From a virus (taxonomy: Duplodnaviria > Heunggongvirae > Uroviricota > Caudoviricetes), in the IMG/VR virus record IMGVR_UViG_2718217714_000002, positions 1-20,207 of that record: a stretch of 20,207 bases of DNA; one strand, written 5' to 3'. Within the stretch, counting starts at the first letter, position 1. Every line of letters begins with the position of its first letter. The notes under the pieces are model-generated. The model ran no database searches, had not been told where the DNA came from, and saw only the letters and a program-made list of their open reading frames with translations. The position numbers and the translations under genes are program-made. Shown in pieces: positions 1-18,129 of the stretch.

Positions 1-225
1 ATGAAGATCGTAAAGGCTGAAGTTTTTGTTACCTGTCCGGGGCGTAATTTCGTCACATTAAAAATCACCACTGAGGACGGTATTACGGGCCTTGGGGATG
101 CCACCCTCAATGGACGTGAGCTTTCCGTGGCCTCTTATTTGCAGGATCACCTTTGTCCGCAGCTTATTGGTCGCGATGCGCACCGTATCGAAGATATCTG
201 GCAGTTTTTCTATAAAGGTGCTTAA
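1..225 (+). pseudogene. rspA: 5' fragment (74 codons) of rspA-like enolase-superfamily dehydratase gene, truncated at a prophage/deletion junction
   Basis: Translation [74 protein letters not shown] matches the N-terminus I recall for E. coli RspA (about 400 aa). The frame hits TAA at 223-225 where the native gene would continue (..KGAYW..). Downstream DNA is phage-like. Confidence 0.75.
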
Positions 226-690
226 CACTGTTTTTGGTTTTAACTGTTCCGCGTGCGCTCAGCCGCATTCACCACATCACAAAATTCACTTTAAAAAGGG
301 CGGCAGAGCAGTCACGGAGTAAAACTGATACCGCCAAACGTCACCAGAAAATTGATAACAGAGGGCGTTGCAGCGGGGTTGTCACTTAAGCGTATGGTCA
401 ACCTGACAACCCGGTGTCCTCAACGGGGAAGGAATAGCCCCGCCATACTTACCGCCGCGCCATTTCGCGGATTGCCACAACCGGAAGCGCACGGTCGACG
501 AAAATTTAACAACAGGCTATCTATGAACCAGCTACCTCGCCGTGCGCTTTCGCGTTATGGTCTGACTTTTCAGGGAAATATCCTTTCAGTAAACTGTCAG
601 TGCCGGATGCTCACCCGTGTCCGGCGCACGCACTCCACCTCACCCGTGGAGAACTCCTTAATTACCAACCTTAGCTTCGTTGGTTAGCTA

Positions 691-4639: not shown

Positions 4640-6643
4640 ATGATTATGAGTGAAAATGATACAACCCCAAAGAAGTCTACAAGCCAGGTTAACAAAGCGG
4701 TATTCTTTACATCTGCTTTGCTAATTTTCCTTCTTGTCGCCTTTGCCGCCGTATTCCCGGATGTCGCCGACAAAAATTTTAAACTACTTCAGCAACAAAT
4801 CTTCACGAATGCCAGCTGGTTCTACATACTTGCTGTGGCCCTGATTTTACTGAGCGTCACGTTCCTTGGACTCTCACGTTACGGTGATATAAAGCTGGGC
4901 CCAGACCATGCGCAGCCTGATTTCAGCTACCACTCCTGGTTCGCGATGCTTTTTTCGGCAGGGATGGGGATCGGCCTGATGTTCTTTGGCGTTGCCGAAC
5001 CTGTGATGCATTATCTTTCGCCACCTGTCGGCACTCCAGAGACCGTTGCGGCAGCGAAGGAAGCCATGCGCCTGACGTTCTTCCACTGGGGTCTGCACGC
5101 ATGGGCAATTTATGCCATCGTGGCGCTGATTCTGGCCTTTTTCAGTTACCGTCACGGTCTGCCTTTAACGCTGCGTTCTGCGCTCTATCCCATTATCGGC
5201 GATCGCATTTACGGGCCTATAGGCCACGCGGTTGATATCTTCGCCGTGATAGGCACTGTCTTTGGCGTTGCAACATCGCTGGGTTACGGTGTATTGCAGG
5301 TGAATGCCGGTTTGAACCATCTTTTCGGCGTGCCCATCAATGAAACGGTACAGGTCATTTTGATCGTGGTCATCACGGGGTTAGCGACGATTTCGGTGGT
5401 GTCCGGCCTGGACAAGGGAATACGCATCCTGTCTGAGCTTAATCTGGGCCTGGCGGTGTTGCTCCTGGCGCTGGTCTTGTGCCTGGGTCCCACTGTGCTT
5501 CTGCTGAAGTCATTTGTGGAAAATACGGGTGGTTATCTGTCGGAACTGGTGAGTAAAACGTTCAACCTTTACGCGTATGAACCCAAGTCGAGCAACTGGC
5601 TGGGGGGCTGGACATTATTATACTGGGGATGGTGGCTTTCATGGTCGCCGTTTGTAGGTATGTTCATTGCACGCGTTTCCCGCGGCAGGACAATTCGTGA
5701 GTTCGTGACTGGCGTGTTGTTTGTTCCCGCCGGCTTTACGCTCATGTGGATGACGGTGTTTGGAAACAGCGCCATCTATCTCATCATGAACCAGGGCGCC
5801 ACTGACCTCGCCAATACCGTTCAGCAGGATGTTGCGCTTGCCCTGTTTAATTTCCTGGAGCATTTCCCGTTCTCTTCCGTGCTGTCATTCATTGCAATGG
5901 CGATGGTCATCGTCTTCTTTGTAACGTCTGCTGATTCGGGGGCAATGGTTGTGGATACTCTGGCATCAGGTGGGGTGGCAAACACGCCCGTCTGGCAGCG
6001 AATTTTCTGGGCATTGCTCATGGGCGTTGTTGCTATTGCCCTGCTGATCGCAGGGGGGCTGAGTGCGTTGCAAACCGTAACGATAGCGAGTGCATTGCCC
6101 TTCTCAGTTATCTTATTAATATCCATATACGGACTGTTAAAAGCCCTGCGTCGGGATTTGACCAAGCGTGAAAGCCTTAGCATGGCGACTATTGCTCCTA
6201 CGGCTGCACGTAACCCAATTCCCTGGCAGAGAAGGTTACGCAATATCGCGTATTTGCCGAAGCGCTCTCTTGTGAAACGTTTTATGGACGACATTATCCA
6301 ACCCGCCATGACGCTGGTTCAGGAGGAACTTAACAAGCAGGGAACGATAAGCCACATCAGTGACGCCGCCGAGGATCGTATTCGCCTTGAAGTCGATTTG
6401 GGCAACGAGCTGAATTATATATATGAAGTGAGGCTTCGCGGGTATAACTCACCGACCTTCGCGCTCGCTGCGCTGGATAATGATGAGCAGCAGAGTGAAC
6501 AACATCGATATTATCGCGCTGAAGTCTATCTCAAAGAGGGCGGCCAAAATTATGATGTAATGGGCTGGAATCAGGAACAGCTGATTAATGACATACTGGA
6601 CCAGTACGAAAAACACCTGCACTTCCTGCATCTGGTTCGTTAA
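4640..6643 (+). CDS. BCCT-family transporter, BetT-like (choline/betaine/carnitine type) with C-terminal cytoplasmic domain
   Basis: 667 aa. Multiple TM segments and BCCT signature region WTLLYWGWWLSWSPFVGMFIARVSRGRTIREF. Overall collinear with E. coli BetT as recalled, including the C-terminal ...ILDQYEKHLHFLHL tail. Confidence 0.85.
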   Translation: MIMSENDTTPKKSTSQVNKAVFFTSALLIFLLVAFAAVFPDVADKNFKLLQQQIFTNASWFYILAVALILLSVTFLGLSRYGDIKLGPDHAQPDFSYHSWFAMLFSAGMGIGLMFFGVAEPVMHYLSPPVGTPETVAAAKEAMRLTFFHWGLHAWAIYAIVALILAFFSYRHGLPLTLRSALYPIIGDRIYGPIGHAVDIFAVIGTVFGVATSLGYGVLQVNAGLNHLFGVPINETVQVILIVVITGLATISVVSGLDKGIRILSELNLGLAVLLLALVLCLGPTVLLLKSFVENTGGYLSELVSKTFNLYAYEPKSSNWLGGWTLLYWGWWLSWSPFVGMFIARVSRGRTIREFVTGVLFVPAGFTLMWMTVFGNSAIYLIMNQGATDLANTVQQDVALALFNFLEHFPFSSVLSFIAMAMVIVFFVTSADSGAMVVDTLASGGVANTPVWQRIFWALLMGVVAIALLIAGGLSALQTVTIASALPFSVILLISIYGLLKALRRDLTKRESLSMATIAPTAARNPIPWQRRLRNIAYLPKRSLVKRFMDDIIQPAMTLVQEELNKQGTISHISDAAEDRIRLEVDLGNELNYIYEVRLRGYNSPTFALAALDNDEQQSEQHRYYRAEVYLKEGGQNYDVMGWNQEQLINDILDQYEKHLHFLHLVR

Positions 6644-6650
6644 CAGCAAC

Positions 6651-6679
6651 ATGCCGCCACAGAGGCGGCATTTATTTAT
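6651..6679 (+). terminator. Rho-independent terminator after the BCCT gene
   Basis: Stem ATGCCGCC (6651-6658) / GGCGGCAT (6664-6671) followed by TTTATTTAT. Confidence 0.6.
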
Positions 6680-6691
6680 CCCGGCTGCAAT

Positions 6692-7984
6692 ATGAGGGAA
6701 TGCAGAATGATTTCACGCTGGAAATGGATGCTGAAGCAGACATTTAAAAAACTATGGTTCAGGGCAACGTTATTCGCAATTGTCGCAATAATAACGGCCC
6801 TTTTATCAATTCTTTTTAAATCAATGATACCTGAGTCGGTTTCCGTGAAGGTTGGTGCGGAAGCAGTCGATAACATTCTGAACATACTGGCATCGAGTAT
6901 GCTGGCAGTGACCACATTTTCGCTGAGCATCATGGTCACAGCCTACGGTTCAGCCACTACTAATGTGACTCCCAGAGCTACTCGTTTAGTCGTTGAAGAC
7001 GTCACCACACAAAATGTACTGGCCACCTTCATCGGTTCTTTTCTCTTCAGTCTGGTAGGGATTATTGCCCTCAATATGGGAGCTTATGGAGAAAGGGGGA
7101 GAGTCATTTTATTCATTGTAACACTGGTTGTCATTGCCTTAATCCTCATCACATTGCTTCGCTGGATACAGCATTTGACCTCTCTGGGGAGGGTTGGTGA
7201 GACAACGGCAAAAGTAGAACAGGCGGCCATCGAAACATTTATTGCGAGAGCAAGAAATCCCTGTCTCGGCGGATATCCATGGCTTGAGAACAATGAACAG
7301 CCGAAAGGAACGGTTGCAGTTTATCCGAAAAAGATTGGCTATGTTGAATATGTTGATATGGTGAAACTCAGCAAGCTGCTGACCAATGATCCCCGTCATG
7401 TATACCTCGTGGCGCAGCCGGGCAGTTTCATACATCCGTCCACGCCAGTTTTGTACCTGAGTCAGGGCCAGGAGTCATCAATCAGCACCGATTTACTTGA
7501 GACGATTATTGTCTCGGATGTACGTTCATTTGCTCAGGACCCCCGATTTTGTCTTAGCGTCATGGCCGAAATAGCCTGCCGAGCCCTTTCCCCCGCAGTG
7601 AACGATCCTGGAACCGCCATTGATGTCATTGGCAGAGGTGTACGTATACTTTCCGCTTACGCGCAGAATAAATCTGATGAAATAGAAGTGAAATATCCTT
7701 CTGTACATGTTGCACCACTTCAGAATAACGATCTACTTGAAGACTTTTTCTCACCTGTTGCGCGCGATGGTGCCAGTATGAGGGAAATTCAGATAAGGGT
7801 CCTTAAAGGACTGTCGATGCTGAGTAAGGGTTGGCCTGGAATTTTTGCTGAAGCCGCACAAACCCTAGCATTTGAAACATTAGAGCATGCTACTCGTGCT
7901 GACCATATAGATTCTGACAGATATCTAATAAAATCAATTTATTATAATTTATTTAGTGGCGAAGATTCTAATAAAAAACCATAG
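6692..7984 (+). CDS. Membrane protein with N-terminal TM helices and large C-terminal soluble domain (possibly DUF2254-like)
   Basis: 430-aa ORF. Hydrophobic helices in the first about 160 aa, then a soluble domain. Likely true start at ATG 6707 (GAGGGA SD 7 nt upstream). Family assignment is from memory of the architecture and is unverified. Confidence 0.55.
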   Translation: MRECRMISRWKWMLKQTFKKLWFRATLFAIVAIITALLSILFKSMIPESVSVKVGAEAVDNILNILASSMLAVTTFSLSIMVTAYGSATTNVTPRATRLVVEDVTTQNVLATFIGSFLFSLVGIIALNMGAYGERGRVILFIVTLVVIALILITLLRWIQHLTSLGRVGETTAKVEQAAIETFIARARNPCLGGYPWLENNEQPKGTVAVYPKKIGYVEYVDMVKLSKLLTNDPRHVYLVAQPGSFIHPSTPVLYLSQGQESSISTDLLETIIVSDVRSFAQDPRFCLSVMAEIACRALSPAVNDPGTAIDVIGRGVRILSAYAQNKSDEIEVKYPSVHVAPLQNNDLLEDFFSPVARDGASMREIQIRVLKGLSMLSKGWPGIFAEAAQTLAFETLEHATRADHIDSDRYLIKSIYYNLFSGEDSNKKP

Positions 7985-8266: not shown

Positions 8267-9610
8267 ATGGCTACTTATGCTTCTTATTTACCAGAATCAC
8301 AAATTATCACTTTGTGCAAGGATTTCCCAGCGTTTACTGATCCTGAAAAATTAGATGGATTCATTAATCCAGAACAGTTTGGCGTGTTTTTTCATGAGTG
8401 GATTCATTTTCTTCACAATATTTCCACAATTAATGGGTTTTCTATTTTTTGCACGCAAAACATCCTGTGGTCTAATTTTCGCTGGGCAATGGACAATCAG
8501 GATGTATGTCTTGGTTCAAATGACATGGATCCAGCACATATCGAATCAAACAAAAATTTTCTCAGTTACATTCGTTCCAATAGGAGTCCGCATAAATGTA
8601 ACTTACCTTATTATGTAAAAGTAAACGACTTGTATTTTGAGGATGCAATAATCCATGACATGGAGGTTGCTGACGGTAGTGTTATATGTACATCATTAAT
8701 AAAGTGTAGAATTTCTCATTCTGAAAACAAATACGATCTAGATTTAGGCGTGCTTGAAATACTTGAATCCGCAGCTTTTATGCTTGAATGTAAGTGTATT
8801 AATGCGATGAATGGCTTCCCTCAAGAGGCACCCTTTTATCCGTATCATACTATCAAGGGCTTAGCAGCGAAAATTGCTCCGTCATTAAATGATGAAGATA
8901 TTATTTGTTGTATGTTAGCTTCTTTGCAATCTAATAACCCTCCCCAAGTATTATTCAATCTACTACATAAATGTGAATTATTACATTCTGATTGTAGGTA
9001 TGAACATCTAGTGGCGGAGGTGAAAAAACAATTAAGCGAACAAGATCAAATAATAAGCGAGTCACTTAATCAAATAATTCAAATGATTCCTGTTGATGAA
9101 CCGATGGGAAACTTTATCAAGCTTACTCTTAACAGAATAAGTAACAATTTGAACTATAGAAAGCAAAAACCGTTTTTTGAGTTAGATATAATAAAAAAAA
9201 TAGCAGAAAAAACTGAGTTTATGAATGAAGTAATACAGAAATTCGGTGGTTGCACTATCATCCAGGTAAGACATGGAGATGATAATGAACCACAGCGTGA
9301 TATTATGTATGACTTTTGCTTACCTGAAAATAATGATTCAATTTTATTTGGTTCGAAAATGCTACGCGCTTGTTTTCACTTTATATTTATTCACTTTAAA
9401 CTTTCTGGTGAAATCATGAAGACAGAAGAATTAAATATTTCGCCGCGTAATAAATGCCCATTTTATACTGTTTGCTGTGCATCAATTCGAGCTAATAATA
9501 GTAATATCTGCGCTGAATCCCCTTGGAAATCAATGTCTATTGATGACAACAAAGGTTGTTATTATGCAGCAGCGATTAAAGCTACTAACCCACCAGTTTT
9601 GCCGGATTAA
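8267..9610 (+). CDS. Hypothetical 447-aa protein with N-terminal HExxH motif (possible zinc metallopeptidase-like), in an AT-rich island
   Basis: Long ORF with AGAGGA SD. FFHEWIHFLHN at residues about 41-51. Cys-rich C-terminal part. Markedly AT-rich by eye relative to neighbours. No family recognised. Confidence 0.6.
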   Translation: MATYASYLPESQIITLCKDFPAFTDPEKLDGFINPEQFGVFFHEWIHFLHNISTINGFSIFCTQNILWSNFRWAMDNQDVCLGSNDMDPAHIESNKNFLSYIRSNRSPHKCNLPYYVKVNDLYFEDAIIHDMEVADGSVICTSLIKCRISHSENKYDLDLGVLEILESAAFMLECKCINAMNGFPQEAPFYPYHTIKGLAAKIAPSLNDEDIICCMLASLQSNNPPQVLFNLLHKCELLHSDCRYEHLVAEVKKQLSEQDQIISESLNQIIQMIPVDEPMGNFIKLTLNRISNNLNYRKQKPFFELDIIKKIAEKTEFMNEVIQKFGGCTIIQVRHGDDNEPQRDIMYDFCLPENNDSILFGSKMLRACFHFIFIHFKLSGEIMKTEELNISPRNKCPFYTVCCASIRANNSNICAESPWKSMSIDDNKGCYYAAAIKATNPPVLPD

Positions 9611-10156
9611 GAATAGTGTTCTATCTGATAAATATAAAATATTTAAGGTCAGGTCTGCTTATCGCTCAAAGCGGACTAGAAGGTTAGCTTGCGTCGGACT
9701 TGGCGTATTTAAAGAAGTACTGGTGGTGACTGGTTGTTGTGTTCCATTTCTACAGAACAAAATCACAGAAACTATACCCAATAGTTGTATCTCATCAATG
9801 ATGAGACAGCCTCATATTTATCAGGACTGGTGTACGTCCAATACAGGAGGTTGTCGTGCTGGTTCTCAAATGTGCGCTGGCTATTGCAGCTGTAATGGCA
9901 ATTTATTGTCTTGCTGTTGTTCTTATGGATCGCCTTTCTGATTGATTTTATATTGGCGAGGTAACGGGAGTTAAGTAGAATGGCTGCGGGTGCTTGAGGC
10001 TATCTGTCTCAGGCATGAACACCAAAGGCAGATAGAGAAAAGCCCCAGTTAACATTACGCGTCCTGCAAGACGCTTAACATTAATCTGAGGCTCAATCTA
10101 TGAACGGCAAATCTAGGTTAGCCTCTTACGTGCCGAAAGGCAAGGAGAAGCAGGCT

Positions 10157-10312
10157 ATGAAGCAGCAAAAGGCGATGTTAATCGCCCTGATCGTCATCTG
10201 TTTAACCGTCATAGTGACGGCACTGGTAACGAGGAAAGACCTCTGCGAGGTACGAATCCGAACCGGCCAGACGGAGGTCGCTGTCTTCACAGCTTACGAA
10301 CCTGAGGAGTAA
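10157..10312 (+). CDS. hokD: Hok/Gef-family type I toxin (HokD/RelF-like, 51 aa)
   Basis: MKQQKAMLIALIVICLTVIVTALVTRKDLCEVRIRTGQTEVAVFTAYEPEE matches Hok-family sequence as recalled. AAGGAG SD upstream. Overlapping upstream mok-like frame from 10100. 5' tac-like (about 9985-10000) and 3' fbi-like (about 10350-10376) complementary elements. Confidence 0.85.
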   Translation: MKQQKAMLIALIVICLTVIVTALVTRKDLCEVRIRTGQTEVAVFTAYEPEE

Positions 10313-11817: not shown

Positions 11818-12189
11818 ATGCGTATAGAGTTTGTTTTGCCTTACCCGCCGACGGTGAACACCTACTGGCGTCGTCGTGGCAGCACATATTTTGTATCAAA
11901 AGCCGGTGAGCGTTATCGCCGGGATGTGGCACTTATTGTCCGCCAGCAGCGGCTGAAATTAAACCTGTCCGGAAGGCTGGCAATAAAAATTACTGCAGAG
12001 CCGCCGGATAAGCGCCGTCGGGACCTGGACAATATCCTGAAAGCACCGCTGGATGCACTGACGCATGCGGGGCTTCTCATAGACGACGAGCAGTTTGATG
12101 AAATCAATATTGTGCGCGGTAAGCTCGTTCCTGGTGGTCGGCTGGGCGTGAAGATTTGCGAAATTAGAGGTGATAGTAATGGGGCGTGA
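11818..12189 (+). CDS. rusA: Crossover junction endodeoxyribonuclease RusA (Holliday junction resolvase)
   Basis: 123 aa with the RusA-family core RRRDLDN and surrounding pattern. Located in the nin region before Q. Confidence 0.8.
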   Translation: MRIEFVLPYPPTVNTYWRRRGSTYFVSKAGERYRRDVALIVRQQRLKLNLSGRLAIKITAEPPDKRRRDLDNILKAPLDALTHAGLLIDDEQFDEINIVRGKLVPGGRLGVKICEIRGDSNGA

Positions 12190-12532
12190 TATGTATGAGG
12201 TTTTAGACCGCTGGGGGGCATGGGCTGCAGCAGAAAATAGTGGTGTCGATTGGCAACCGATAGCAGCGGGCTTCAAGGGGCTTTTACCTCATGGCAAAAA
12301 GTCACGGATTCAGTGTGATGATGACGAAGGCATTATGATAGACAGTTGTGTGGCTCGGTTGAGAAGGTATAAACCAGAGGAATATGAGCTCATCATAGCC
12401 CACTTTGTTATTGGTATCTCATTACGCACTATTGCCAAAAAGAGAAGGTGTTCAGATGGCACGATTAGAAAGGAATTACAAACTGCAATTGGTTTTGTAG
12501 AGGGTATTACGAGCGTTATTGCATGTAAATAA
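12179..12532 (+). CDS. Late-gene antitermination protein Q (short Q, quuD/quuQ-like)
   Basis: MGRDMYEVLDRWGAWAA...IAAGFKGL... aligns with the N-terminus of DLP12 QuuD as recalled (MRDIQMVLERWGAW...AAGFKGL). Start chosen at ATG 12179 (AGAGG SD 9 nt upstream); the track ORF starts at 12170. Confidence 0.7.
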   Translation: MGRDMYEVLDRWGAWAAAENSGVDWQPIAAGFKGLLPHGKKSRIQCDDDEGIMIDSCVARLRRYKPEEYELIIAHFVIGISLRTIAKKRRCSDGTIRKELQTAIGFVEGITSVIACK

Positions 12533-12738: not shown

Positions 12739-14022
12739 CTATGACCGTGAAAAGTAGTGATGGTTCAGTTCTTTTGCAAAATAGTGCTTACGTTTAACCC
12801 AGATAAAACCATCAGCTTTAGAAATGATTGCAACATCTATGGGGCCTCCCACTGTTTCAGTATCATCGGAGACCTTGCGCTTGAAAGCGGTTAAATTTAC
12901 TAATGATTCAGCCATATAAGCTAAATCTTGCTTGGGTAAAAACTCGATCATATTTACGACTTTGTCAACATAGTTTTCTCGGACAAAGCTATCAATACGC
13001 CCCTTGCAATCGGAAACAGTTCTGCGCACTACATCAACTATAGCATCCTTGGCTCCTTCGATATCTGAAGTGGGCACCAAATCTGTGATTACTGAATCAA
13101 TACCATCAAGTAAATCGCCGATAGAACGTTGATACTCAGCATGAAGATTTTGGATAAGATGTGAACTAGCTCCTTGCATGAAAGCAGAAACTTCATCCTC
13201 TTGCGCAAAGGGAGTCACGCCGCAATTAGGAGTGATGCAGCACTTGTCAGCATCTGTGGTTTTCCTTATTTTATCATTAAAGAAGCCACAAACTTCATAT
13301 GATAATACTTTAGGGTAATAGTCTTTATCGCCATAACCTGCAATCACAATCCCAGAGACGGAACCAATATCACTTTGCTTGCATATCATAGCTGCCAATA
13401 CATCACTAACTGCTTTTGTCAACTGTGGAGTTATGGATATTGAATCAAAGTCACTAAACTTTTGAGCAATGATGCGTTGGGTAATTGATGAAGCATAGGT
13501 TTGGGCTGCTTGTTCATCATCCGGAGTAAAACCATCAAAGTAATTAATATCAGATAATTTTGTAAGGAGATCGTTGCAATAATTCGTGAGGTCTGTAACA
13601 AATTGATTCTTATCGAAGTTAACGAGATATGTTGGTTCGAGACCTTCAGAAAAAGCATCAACAAGCATGCTGAATACAATCTCGCTCAGGAAGTGATAAA
13701 GATGAGCCTCACGCATACCTGGTGTGATGATTGATTTAGCTGACTGTAGATAATTGAAGAAATCCTCAGCATATTCCTCCAAAGAGTCAAAACATTTAGA
13801 GCCTAAATCCTTTCTATAAGCCTTAATGATAAGCTCCCATGGAGCTGTGCAGAGATCACCAGTTCCATATACCATCAAACCTACAGGATGATGTTTAGTG
13901 AGAGCGAAAAGCTTTTCAGCGCCATTATAGATTTTATGTTTGCCGCCTCCAGAAATCGTTACAGCTGAATCTGCGGCTAAAGCTACTGCGGTCTTGTTAA
14001 ATACGGCTATTTCTGCTGTCAT
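12739..14022 (-). CDS. Enlarged proteasome beta-subunit/HslV-like (Ntn-hydrolase fold) protein, 427 aa
   Basis: N-terminus M-TAEIAVFNKTAVALAADSAVT...EKLFAL...GLMVYGTGD aligns by eye with HslV and archaeal 20S beta (Thr1, Asp17, Lys about 33-36). C-terminus VGGPIDVAIISKADGFIWV matches the beta-subunit SGGMIDVAVITRKDGYV motif. About 200 extra residues lie between. AT-rich, no canonical SD. Confidence 0.7.
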   Translation of the reverse strand: MTAEIAVFNKTAVALAADSAVTISGGGKHKIYNGAEKLFALTKHHPVGLMVYGTGDLCTAPWELIIKAYRKDLGSKCFDSLEEYAEDFFNYLQSAKSIITPGMREAHLYHFLSEIVFSMLVDAFSEGLEPTYLVNFDKNQFVTDLTNYCNDLLTKLSDINYFDGFTPDDEQAAQTYASSITQRIIAQKFSDFDSISITPQLTKAVSDVLAAMICKQSDIGSVSGIVIAGYGDKDYYPKVLSYEVCGFFNDKIRKTTDADKCCITPNCGVTPFAQEDEVSAFMQGASSHLIQNLHAEYQRSIGDLLDGIDSVITDLVPTSDIEGAKDAIVDVVRRTVSDCKGRIDSFVRENYVDKVVNMIEFLPKQDLAYMAESLVNLTAFKRKVSDDTETVGGPIDVAIISKADGFIWVKRKHYFAKELNHHYFSRS

Positions 14023-15837: not shown

Positions 15838-15913
<76 letters not shown>

Positions 15914-15916
15914 TAT

Positions 15917-15991
<75 letters not shown>

Positions 15992-16349
15992 GAGAAACAA
16001 GCCTTATTGTATCGTTGCACTGGCGTATTTTTTATTGCGTGGGAGCAGGTTGTTTTTAAAAGGCATTCTGTTTTCTGGCTGTGATTTGAGGTCGGTTATA
16101 GCCACAGTGCTGTTTTTTACACCACTGGAATGGTGCATTATCGGTGGAAATTGAGCATTTCCTGACAGGGGCCGATGATGCACTATCCCGGTGTTGTAAA
16201 TAACACTACAGAGGTGTTCCTCAGTGCGAGGGTGGTTTATGTAACTGTTTAGCGGGAAACCACAGTATTCATGGAGAGATGGATACTTCGGGGGGCACCC
16301 GACACCTCTGTTTTTCTACTACAAAAATGATTCATCTCTGGCATTTTTC

Positions 16350-16376
16350 AACCGCCGTTCCGGGCGGTTTTTTTTA
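16350..16376 (+). terminator. Intrinsic terminator in the tRNA-to-lysis intergenic region
   Basis: AACCGCC-GTTCCG-GGCGGTT followed by a T9 run. Confidence 0.5.
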
Positions 16377-16697
16377 TTCTGAACTCAGAAAAGAATACAC
16401 GGGCATTGATATTACCCGTGTGGCAAGGCCATGAAAGCCAATAATGAACTGAGCGCAAAAAAAGCGCGGCTGTCGGATTAACGCCGCGGGACAAAGTCCG
16501 TGAAGAAGAATAAGCATCAGTCTCCTCCAGGAGACGATTTGATATTACTAAGCTTTAAAAATGGTTTAAACCCCCGGATTAACCTTAATTTCAGATAAGC
16601 TTTATTTCATTTTCTCCGAGCCACGTCAGGCGCATATCACATCAGATAACACCACATAAAAGGTATCTGCGGGTGCCTTTCACGGGGTGTTTTTTTA

Positions 16698-16720
16698 CGG
16701 GCCGCTGGTGGCCCTTTTTT
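16698..16720 (+). terminator. Intrinsic terminator immediately upstream of the holin gene (tR'-like position)
   Basis: GGGCC-GCTGGT-GGCCC followed by TTTTTT, then AGGAG SD and ATG at 16739. A second T-run hairpin-like element lies just upstream (about 16680-16696). Confidence 0.5.
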
Positions 16721-16738
16721 ATTTACAGGAGAAAAAGT

Positions 16739-17130
16739 ATGTCTGAACCCTTATCCGGTTCCGGCACGGCTGCAGCGCTCGGCGGGGCGACGGTGTACGG
16801 GCTGTTTACCGGAACGGATTTCGGGATTGTGTTTGGTGCCTTTGCCGGGGCGTTATTTGTGGCAACGATGCCGCAGGCGCTTTCAGCCTGGCGTGTGCGG
16901 CACATTTTCTGGTGTCGTTCATTGTTGGTGTGCTGGGGGCAGAAGTTCTGGCATCCTGGCTGGTAAAGCATACAGAGTTTGACGGTGCACCTGTCGACGC
17001 ATTGTGTGCAGTACTGGTGTCAGTGGTGTCGGTGAAGATTCTCTCGTTCATCCACCAGCAGGATATTGCATCACTGGTGTCCGGTCTGTTCTCCCGTCTG
17101 CGGGGCGGAGGAGGCGGCAATGTTAAGTAA
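16739..17130 (+). pseudogene. Holin-like gene split by an apparent frameshift at a T4 homopolymer (16905-16908)
   Basis: Frame A (16739..16966) encodes a Gly-rich TM N-terminus and then W/C/R-rich nonsense. Frame B (16912..17130) encodes a TM-rich continuation SFIVGVLGAEVLASWLV.... Adding one T to the T4 run joins them as ...RVRHIFLVSFIVGVLG... into one holin of about 130 aa. Confidence 0.5.
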
Positions 17131-17398
17131 CCTTCCCGGATTGCTGAATGTGGCGTTATGCACGGTTATCGTGCTGACGCTCTTTTTTTATCGTCGTCGT
17201 GATTCCAGACATAAACCGTTGATGTCATGGCTGGCCTGGCTGCTGATGCTGCTTTATGCCTTTGCACCACTCAGTTATCTGTGCGGTCGCCCGTTAGCGG
17301 CGAACTGGCTGGCGGTGGGGCTTAATCTGCTGTTCTGCGTGTTGGTTATTCGCGCACGCGGGAACGTTTCAAAAATCTTTGTATTACGAAGACGCTGA
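17120..17398 (+). CDS. Small membrane protein of the lysis cassette (holin/antiholin-like)
   Basis: 92 aa, MLSNLPGLLNVALCTVIVLTLFFYRRRD... with at least two hydrophobic helices. GGAGG SD. Start overlaps the upstream stop and its stop abuts the endolysin ATG. Confidence 0.5.
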   Translation: MLSNLPGLLNVALCTVIVLTLFFYRRRDSRHKPLMSWLAWLLMLLYAFAPLSYLCGRPLAANWLAVGLNLLFCVLVIRARGNVSKIFVLRRR

Positions 17399-17399
17399 T

Positions 17400-17528
17400 A
17401 TGAAGTCGAAAGATGAAATTTTTGACGAAGTTCTGGGAAAAGAGGGCGGTTACGTCAATCACCCGGATGATAAAGGCGGACCGACAAAATGGGGTATTAC
17501 GGAAAAAGTCGCCCGCGCTCACGGATAA
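17400..17528 (+). pseudogene. Endolysin 5' fragment (glycoside hydrolase family 108-type N-terminus), truncated after 42 codons
   Basis: MKSKDEIFDEVLGKEGGYVNHPDDKGGPTKWGITEKVARAHG then TAA. The GGYVNHPDDKGGPTKWGIT signature is the conserved start of GH108-type phage lysozymes. The downstream sequence switches to tail-fibre coding DNA. Confidence 0.65.
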
Positions 17529-18129
17529 CGGGAAATACACCGCACAGAATGCAACGACAGCACAGAAAGGGATAGTACAACTCAGCAGTGCGACAAACAG
17601 TACTTCCGAGTCACTGGCGGCAACGCCAAAAGCAGTTAAGGCCGCGTATGACCTGGCTAACGGGAAATACACCGCACAGAATGCAACGACAGCACAGAAA
17701 GGGATAGTACAACTCAGTAGTGCGACAAACAGCACTTCCGAGTCACTGGCGGCAACCCCAAAAGCGGTCAAAGTGGTAATGGATGAGGCTCAGAGCAAAT
17801 TATCAAAGGATGAATTTTTAAGAAGTATCAGTTCGCCGAAACCGGATATCGGCAGTGTGGTTATGGCAGCTTTTTTGGGAGTAGCGGAAGGTGGAGTTTT
17901 AATGCGCCTGAGTCGTGGACAACCATGCCCGGGAAAAGCACTTGCGCCGGTGGAAATAGTAGTGGGAGGCGTGACAGGAGCAGGCACAATGAAAGGGGAG
18001 GCAACGTTTGTCATTGGCAGAACGAATACATCGGCATTTCCCGGAGTGTATCAGTCTCTGGGGGGAGATGGTCTTTATACCACCAACGGAAAGGAAGCGT
18101 ATATAGGATTATTTGTGCGGGTCGGGTGA
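17521..18129 (+). pseudogene. 3' fragment of side tail-fibre gene (tail-fibre repeat region plus C-terminal domain)
   Basis: Contains two copies of the tail-fibre repeat GKYTAQNATTAQKGIVQLSSATNSTSESLAATPKAVK, as in Stf proteins. The first about 36 codons of the 17413 track ORF are out-of-frame overlap with the endolysin fragment. Confidence 0.65.
17527..17769 (+). repeat. Tandem direct repeat, 132-bp unit, about 1.8 copies (coding tail-fibre repeat)
   Basis: AACGGGAAATACACCGCACAGAATGCAACGACAGCACAGAAAGGGATAGTACAACTCAG... at 17527 and again at 17659. Also produces the mirrored minus-strand ORF 17346..17771. Confidence 0.8.

Follow-up and report, generated by a model that had tools for sequence, protein, structure and literature searches.

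Two adjoining holin genes followed by an endolysin gene have been described in the Stx2e phage phiP27 (L28 holin, L29 holin, L30 endolysin) and in the LT-II prophages Rac-SA53 and SerU-LTIIb (holin1, holin2, endolysin), with the holin pair in each lying downstream of a DNA methyltransferase gene and tRNA genes; phage pPE4 has the same lysis cassette. The first holin (L28 of phiP27, holin1 of Rac-SA53 and SerU-LTIIb, and the unbroken gp36 of pPE4) is in every case one ORF. An orthologue, WP_032083190 (130 aa), was tested in porcine Stx2e STEC, where, once it was deleted, fluoroquinolone no longer raised extracellular Stx2e, and where its expression from a plasmid raised Stx2e release in unresponsive strains (PMC12571312). 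For membrane-permeabilising (holin) activity the evidence comes from this orthologue, whose deletion and complementation alter Stx2e release (PMC12571312).

We examined a stretch of 20,207 nt (the window; positions 1 to 20,207 of IMG/VR record IMGVR_UViG_2718217714_000002), which derives from a defective Qin-type lambdoid E. coli prophage situated between rspA and ydfJ. The order and overlap of holin1 and holin2 in the window are those of phiP27 and of the LT-II prophages, as is the position of the pair after methyltransferase and tRNA genes, and its holin1 is 95% identical to that of phiP27 and 83–94% identical to those of the LT-II prophages. The cloning primers used for the tested orthologue (PMC12571312) map to window positions 16739-16758 (one substitution) and 17111-17130 (exact). 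The holin1, holin2 and GH108 endolysin genes lie directly next to one another, both in the window and in every relative. In phiP27, stx2e lies between the tRNAs and the holin and the endolysin is of the peptidase type, whereas the window has no toxin operon and its GH108 endolysin is truncated; and holin1, intact in phiP27 and the LT-II prophages, is broken in the window. The gene encoding WP_001398932.1 is identical to the window's in DNA except for one G missing from the window, and the two have in common the upstream terminator, the Shine-Dalgarno sequence, an 11-nt overlap with holin2, and placement after the methyltransferase and tRNA genes.

Table 1. Features of the window, numbered from its first nucleotide.
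Feature	Position	Strand	Remarks
DicF sRNA	298-349	-	76.7 bits; looks intact
BCCT-family transporter (667 aa) and DUF2254 membrane protein (430 aa)	4640-7984		cargo, as in related ETEC prophages
Divergent 1.6-kb segment	8070-9653		differs from both nearest prophages (ETEC-2265, F9792)
447-aa ORF	8267-9610	+	phrog_15354 (unknown function)
sok antitoxin RNA of hokD locus	9988-10162	+	110 bits; looks intact
Q-family antiterminator gene	12170..12532	+	intact, PF06530 1.3e-43; upstream of late region
427-aa ORF	12739-14022	-	phrog_5990; WP_000123148.1 "hypothetical protein"
Prophage tRNA-Thr(TGT) and tRNA-Gly(TCC)	15838-15991	+	look intact
Second terminator-like hairpin	16350-16377		consensus scan only
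Terminator-like hairpin and T-run	16699..16720	+	just upstream of holin SD; consensus scan only
ORF1 (holin1 5' part)	16739..16966	+	ATG 16739, TAA stop 16964-16966; 75 aa
Lesion site	16896..16898	+	single G at 16897, GG in intact alleles
holin1 codons 54-130, shifted frame	16898..17130	+	includes ORF2
T4 run	16905..16908	+	same in intact alleles; not the lesion
ORF2	16912..17130	+	GTG start; 72 aa
holin2 (92 aa, Phage_holin_3_7, PF05449)	17120..17398	+	intact; 100% identical to WP_001398933.1
GH108 endolysin remnant	17400..17528	+	42/181 codons, then TAA formed at the deletion junction
Deletion junction	17523..17527	.	endolysin 5' end to tail-fibre repeat region; CACGGATA joined to ACGGG

A preliminary description of this DNA, made from its letters, had noted two overlapping ORFs at the holin locus and a run of four T residues within the overlap, and both are present exactly as given there (Table 1). 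ORF1 is preceded by a good Shine-Dalgarno sequence (AGGAG at 16727-16731; anti-SD duplex of -7.4 kcal/mol) and consists of native holin1 codons 1-53 (MSEPL...SAWRV) followed by 22 out-of-frame residues (RHIFWCRSLLVCWGQKFWHPGW). ORF2 lies in a frame one base behind that of ORF1 and overlaps it by 55 nt. The 3' part of ORF1 is rich in W, C and R and ORF2 is a hydrophobic continuation, so that the translations and the hydrophobicity agree with the earlier impression of nonsense in the one and a TM-rich continuation in the other. ORF1 matches positions 1-54 of phrog_198 and ORF2 matches positions 59-123, and a single base inserted anywhere in their overlap gives a protein of 130 aa. The repaired protein matched Pfam family Phage_holin_8 (PF16931) over residues 1-124 with an E-value of 3e-22 and 79.5 bits (curated cutoff, 26.4 bits; 1-121 of the 121 profile positions spanned) and phrog_198 "holin" at 3e-43, and the proposed identity of the gene as a holin was thereby confirmed.

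A single ORF is the norm for this gene among close relatives. The 771-nt holin region was present in 374 of 5,426 complete E. coli genomes; the eight closest matches span 772 nt and carry a single 393-nt gene for the 130-aa "putative holin" WP_001398932.1 (in ETEC genomes). When the intact protein was used as tblastn query on 34 fetched loci (32 of them homologous), close relatives had residues 1-130 in one frame, the exceptions being one locus that matched only to residue 96 and the distant loci. The exact holin2 protein, with 2,171 indexed blocks in the collection, is accompanied at all ten of the places listed by consecutive genes of 130, 92 and 181 aa. In a collection of 5.8 billion proteins the large clusters (623, 350 and 201 members) are all of 130 aa. 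The comparison with homologues had been set in advance as the test of a disrupted gene: the close relatives all had one ORF, an arrangement of two proteins conserved among them was not found, and the idea of one gene of 130 aa split by a single-base frameshift was upheld by the intact relatives. Databases do contain occasional split alleles, whose breakpoints differ from this one and among themselves; these are taken up below.

The two ORFs are one gene disrupted by a single-base frameshift at codons 53/54. In a DNA alignment with the intact alleles of four E. coli genomes (L001, L002, L003, L007) the missing base was a G of a GG doublet: the relatives have GTGTGGCGGC where the window has GTGTGCGGC at 16897, or, in other excerpts of the same alignment, GTGTGGCGGCAC against GTGTGCGGCAC and, at greater length, ...CGTGTGGCGGCACATTTT... 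against ...CGTGTGCGGCACATTTT..., the native sequence around the site being ...SAWRVAAHFLVSFIVG... The base lost is the third of codon 53 or the first of codon 54. The preliminary description had placed the lesion in the T4 homopolymer; that position is ruled out, since TTTT is unchanged in the aligned intact alleles and the lesion lies 8 nt upstream of it, in a 2-nt run and not in a homopolymer tract. With the lesion in the GG doublet and the T4 run intact, the homopolymer sequencing error offered there as an alternative is weakened in the form in which it was first framed. The protein sequence had likewise been read as plausible up to ...WRVRHIF, four residues of which are out of frame, the native sequence of ORF1 stopping at V53 (...SAWRV) and the native protein continuing as ...WRVAAHFLVSF... 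The fused product suggested earlier (...RVRHIFLVSF...) was right in its length of 130 aa and wrong at A54, A55 and H56, where the intact protein has ...RVAAHFLVSF... Among 22 diverse full-length family members, F57 never varies, and conservation reaches at least 90% at each of W51, R52, V53, A54, A55 and H56.

Because of the 1-nt deletion at 16897 the reading frame changes after V53, which makes the window copy a pseudogene within Phage_holin_8. As we picture the event, holin1 would have lost one G of the doublet at codons 53/54 in a prophage already short of integration, excision and morphogenesis genes and of most of its endolysin, losses that would have left no selection for an intact holin; translation from the ATG at 16739 would then add 22 wrong-frame residues to the 53 native ones before reaching the stop. 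It would be an ordinary frameshifted pseudogene of a prophage holin that is already known and experimentally studied.

We asked if the missing G could be an error of sequencing or assembly, the true genome having an intact 130-aa holin1. One miscalled base would suffice, the surrounding 2.4 kb match genomes with an unbroken gene at 100% identity in every other position (15145-17527 matches ETEC-2265 in full apart from the lesion), and the allele was unique among all collections searched. An exact 61-mer of the deletion allele was found in 0 of 5,426 complete E. coli genomes; a 35-mer across the deletion had 0 matches in GTDB representative genomes, JGI metagenomes and IMG/VR (as positive control, the intact 36-mer had 20 IMG/VR matches); a protein search with the out-of-frame tail found the allele nowhere else; and the 75-aa, 97-aa and 72-aa ORF products and the 238-aa ORF formed at the deletion junction had no record in the assembly index. 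The absence of these truncated and junction products from the record means that there is no independent sighting of this strain's sequence, and the allele, found nowhere else, is private to this genome.

Against an error stands the site itself, a 2-nt run. Over the roughly 16.6 kb that run collinear with the nearest relatives no other indel occurs, and the missing G is likewise the only gap column in 7.9 kb aligned with ETEC-2265; the same 16.6 kb of the same assembly contains about 100 homopolymers of at least 5 nt (nine of at least 7 nt, the longest 8), and these show no length difference from the relatives, which argues against systematic homopolymer error. Large deletions private to this prophage are also present, and base-calling errors could not have produced them. 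Further, loss of a single nucleotide from the same GGCGGC hexamer is inherited in another lineage: the protein cluster P0001, a clearly different allele, has an independent 1-nt deletion there and is represented on 8 contigs (NCBI and Logan assemblies), which shows frameshifts of this kind to be real and inherited. In the window the G was lost from the first GG of the hexamer; in the P0001 lineage a base is gone from the second. Taking these points together, a miscalled base seems rather unlikely to us, and we think it probable that the missing G is a real mutation, an ordinary inactivating frameshift of holin1. The frameshift is probably recent.

The other disrupted holin1 alleles in databases form small clusters with heterogeneous breakpoints, as compared with hundreds of members for the 130-aa forms. 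The frame is shifted at a G5 run in P0002 and P0003 and elsewhere in P0004, P0005, P0084 and P0105; in P0011 (ETEC E24377A) the holin breaks off after V53, where a large deletion has joined it to head genes (gpW and portal); and in P0075 the holin is fused to a tail-fibre assembly gene. In P0001, P0002, P0003 and P0011, as in the window, the same gene has been inactivated in degraded prophages, but by separate events in different alleles; the exact lesion of the window and its tail were absent from these four.

Several independent lesions cluster at window positions 16893-16901 (GTGGCGGCA in intact alleles; loci L045, L046, L047), and the P0007 protein diverges at V53, the residue at which E24377A P0011 is broken. 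This cluster at GGCGGC may represent a small mutational hotspot, or it may be a coincidence. A more elaborate possibility is that the hexamer (codons 53-55) is a recurrent single-base deletion hotspot by which the holin is switched off, and that rare -1 slippage at UUU-UC, 8 nt downstream, might then bring back a trace of a 130-aa AAH-to-RHI variant, so that prophages keeping Q and holin2 would have a leaky or attenuated holin. The hotspot part draws on the two independent 1-nt hexamer deletions (window and P0001) and on the two breakpoints after V53; as a whole we regard the proposal as very unlikely. If it were true it would matter, as the orthologue controls toxin release in STEC.

We also considered if the two frames might be joined during expression, by programmed -1 ribosomal frameshifting or by transcriptional slippage near the T4 run, so that a full-length holin is made. 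Any -1 shift within the overlap would bring the two frames together, and the sequence CAC-AUU-UUC would allow a tRNA-Phe paired to UUC to re-pair with UUU. The X XXY YYZ heptamer is absent, however: the ORF1 frame reads CAC ATT TTC TGG, and C-AUU-UUC fails at the P site. The 81 nt downstream (16910-16990) had an MFE of -20.3 kcal/mol, where shuffled sequences averaged -21.9 kcal/mol (z = +0.59), with 145 of 200 shuffles folding as well as the native segment, and four T residues are far too short a run for transcriptional slippage. The homologues are one continuous ORF and hence have no conserved frameshift signal, and the product would have AAH changed to RHI at three conserved positions. Programmed frameshifting was thus rejected for the absence of heptamer, downstream structure and conservation, and we consider it extremely unlikely; the preliminary description, which had called it remote, was correct in this.

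Dual-start and paired holin/antiholin arrangements are known in other phages, and this precedent could be taken to favor two real, separately translated small membrane proteins, e.g., a holin/antiholin pair made from the two halves. Each half also has its own small PHROG family (phrog_21855, residues 1-46; phrog_16047, residues 58-130). Yet the GTG of ORF2 at 16912 has no Shine-Dalgarno sequence before it (anti-SD, -1.9 kcal/mol), which makes independent translation unlikely, and most likely no ORF2 product is synthesized. In ORF1, a third of the residues are read out of frame. The N-terminal PHROG has a length of 48 aa, as against 75 aa for ORF1, which points to different lesions; the database splits have heterogeneous breakpoints and tiny clusters compared with hundreds of members for the 130-aa forms; and the shared C-terminal boundary is a gene-caller effect, as any frameshift upstream of V59 causes the caller to start the C-terminal fragment at the same GTG. 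Two real genes were rejected on the translation signals and the heterogeneous breakpoints, and this reading appears scarcely credible to us. The heterogeneous split alleles also account for the small PHROG families matching each half: phrog_16047 and phrog_21855 ("unknown function") appear to be C- and N-terminal fragments of frameshifted Phage_holin_8 genes, and look like annotation artefacts rather than true families.

In Kyte-Doolittle plots the intact protein has strong hydrophobic segments at residues 26-45, 51-76 and 83-107 and a weaker, Gly/Ala-rich one at 8-24, and its C-terminal tail is charged and basic (R120, R122, K130). An AlphaFold model, used for helix positions only because of its low confidence (pLDDT 52), places helices at 8-24, 27-42, 50-79 and 84-122, in agreement with the hydrophobic segments. 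By this predicted topology the intact form has the several membrane segments and charged C-terminal tail expected of the family. The 75-aa product retains the N-terminal Gly/Ala-rich segment and the first strong hydrophobic segment (26-45) and is without segments 51-76 and 83-107 and the basic tail, its native part ending at V53, the start of the third helix in the low-confidence model. Through loss of two membrane segments and of the basic tail, the 75-aa product is most likely inactive as a holin, as judged from the topology. Compared with WP_001398932.1, then, the window copy with its codon 53/54 frameshift encodes only 53 native residues and a 22-residue aberrant tail, and a strain with this allele is predicted to be without holin1 function. 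Some membrane activity could still come from the intact holin2. As the orthologue drives antibiotic-induced release of Stx2e (PMC12571312), the status of this holin can affect toxin release or lysis phenotypes; beyond that, the finding has little importance other than for annotation, where the two ORFs should be entered as one frameshifted holin pseudogene with its lesion at 16897 and not at the T4 run.

The neighboring genes of the cassette are in different states. The preliminary description had spoken of decay in the other lysis genes, which holds for the endolysin (42 of 181 aa remain) and fails for holin2, which is intact and identical to the reference. The holin2 gene has a strong Shine-Dalgarno sequence (-12.1 kcal/mol), and its first 11 nt are shared with the end of holin1. 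The terminator-like hairpins, at 16350-16369 and 16699-16714, would fit with a Q-antiterminated late operon; a late promoter and a qut site were not identified alongside the Q gene and the hairpins. From the tRNAs to the holin, window positions 15992-16738 (~750 nt) contain two terminator-like hairpins and no sizeable ORF. The equivalent interval of phiP27 holds the stx2e operon, by which the interval in the window would be a toxin/moron insertion slot, empty here.

The prophage as a whole is heavily decayed. The window begins at the start codon of rspA and after 224 nt jumps to prophage DNA just beyond dicB (junction 223/224), so that rspA is cut to 74 codons (window 1-225); by comparison with ETEC-2265 and F9792, the window lacks the remainder of rspA together with rspB, int, xis, exo and dicB. 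There was no IS element at the rspA/prophage junction. At the other end, homology to intact prophages stops at 17527, at a junction of endolysin and tail-fibre sequence that is shared by no complete E. coli genome, and the deletion there has removed all packaging, head and tail genes. It leaves a fibre fragment (17526-17765; a 132-nt unit repeated 1.8 times with 97% match, giving two Phage_fiber_2 repeats), which is followed by a tail-fibre assembly gene and then by the 3' part of ydfJ. Retained between these ends are the DicF RNA, the immunity region, hok/sok, DUF968 and RusA genes, and the intact Q antiterminator gene.

Several other parts of the window deserve mention. The transporter and DUF2254 genes and the two RNA and tRNA loci are listed in Table 1. 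The 427-aa ORF lies between Q and the DNA methyltransferase gene, a position that is a typical moron/cargo slot; neither it nor the 447-aa ORF had a Pfam or PADLOC match. The divergent 1.6-kb segment that includes the 447-aa ORF has a 99.7% identical copy in APEC and other E. coli genomes.
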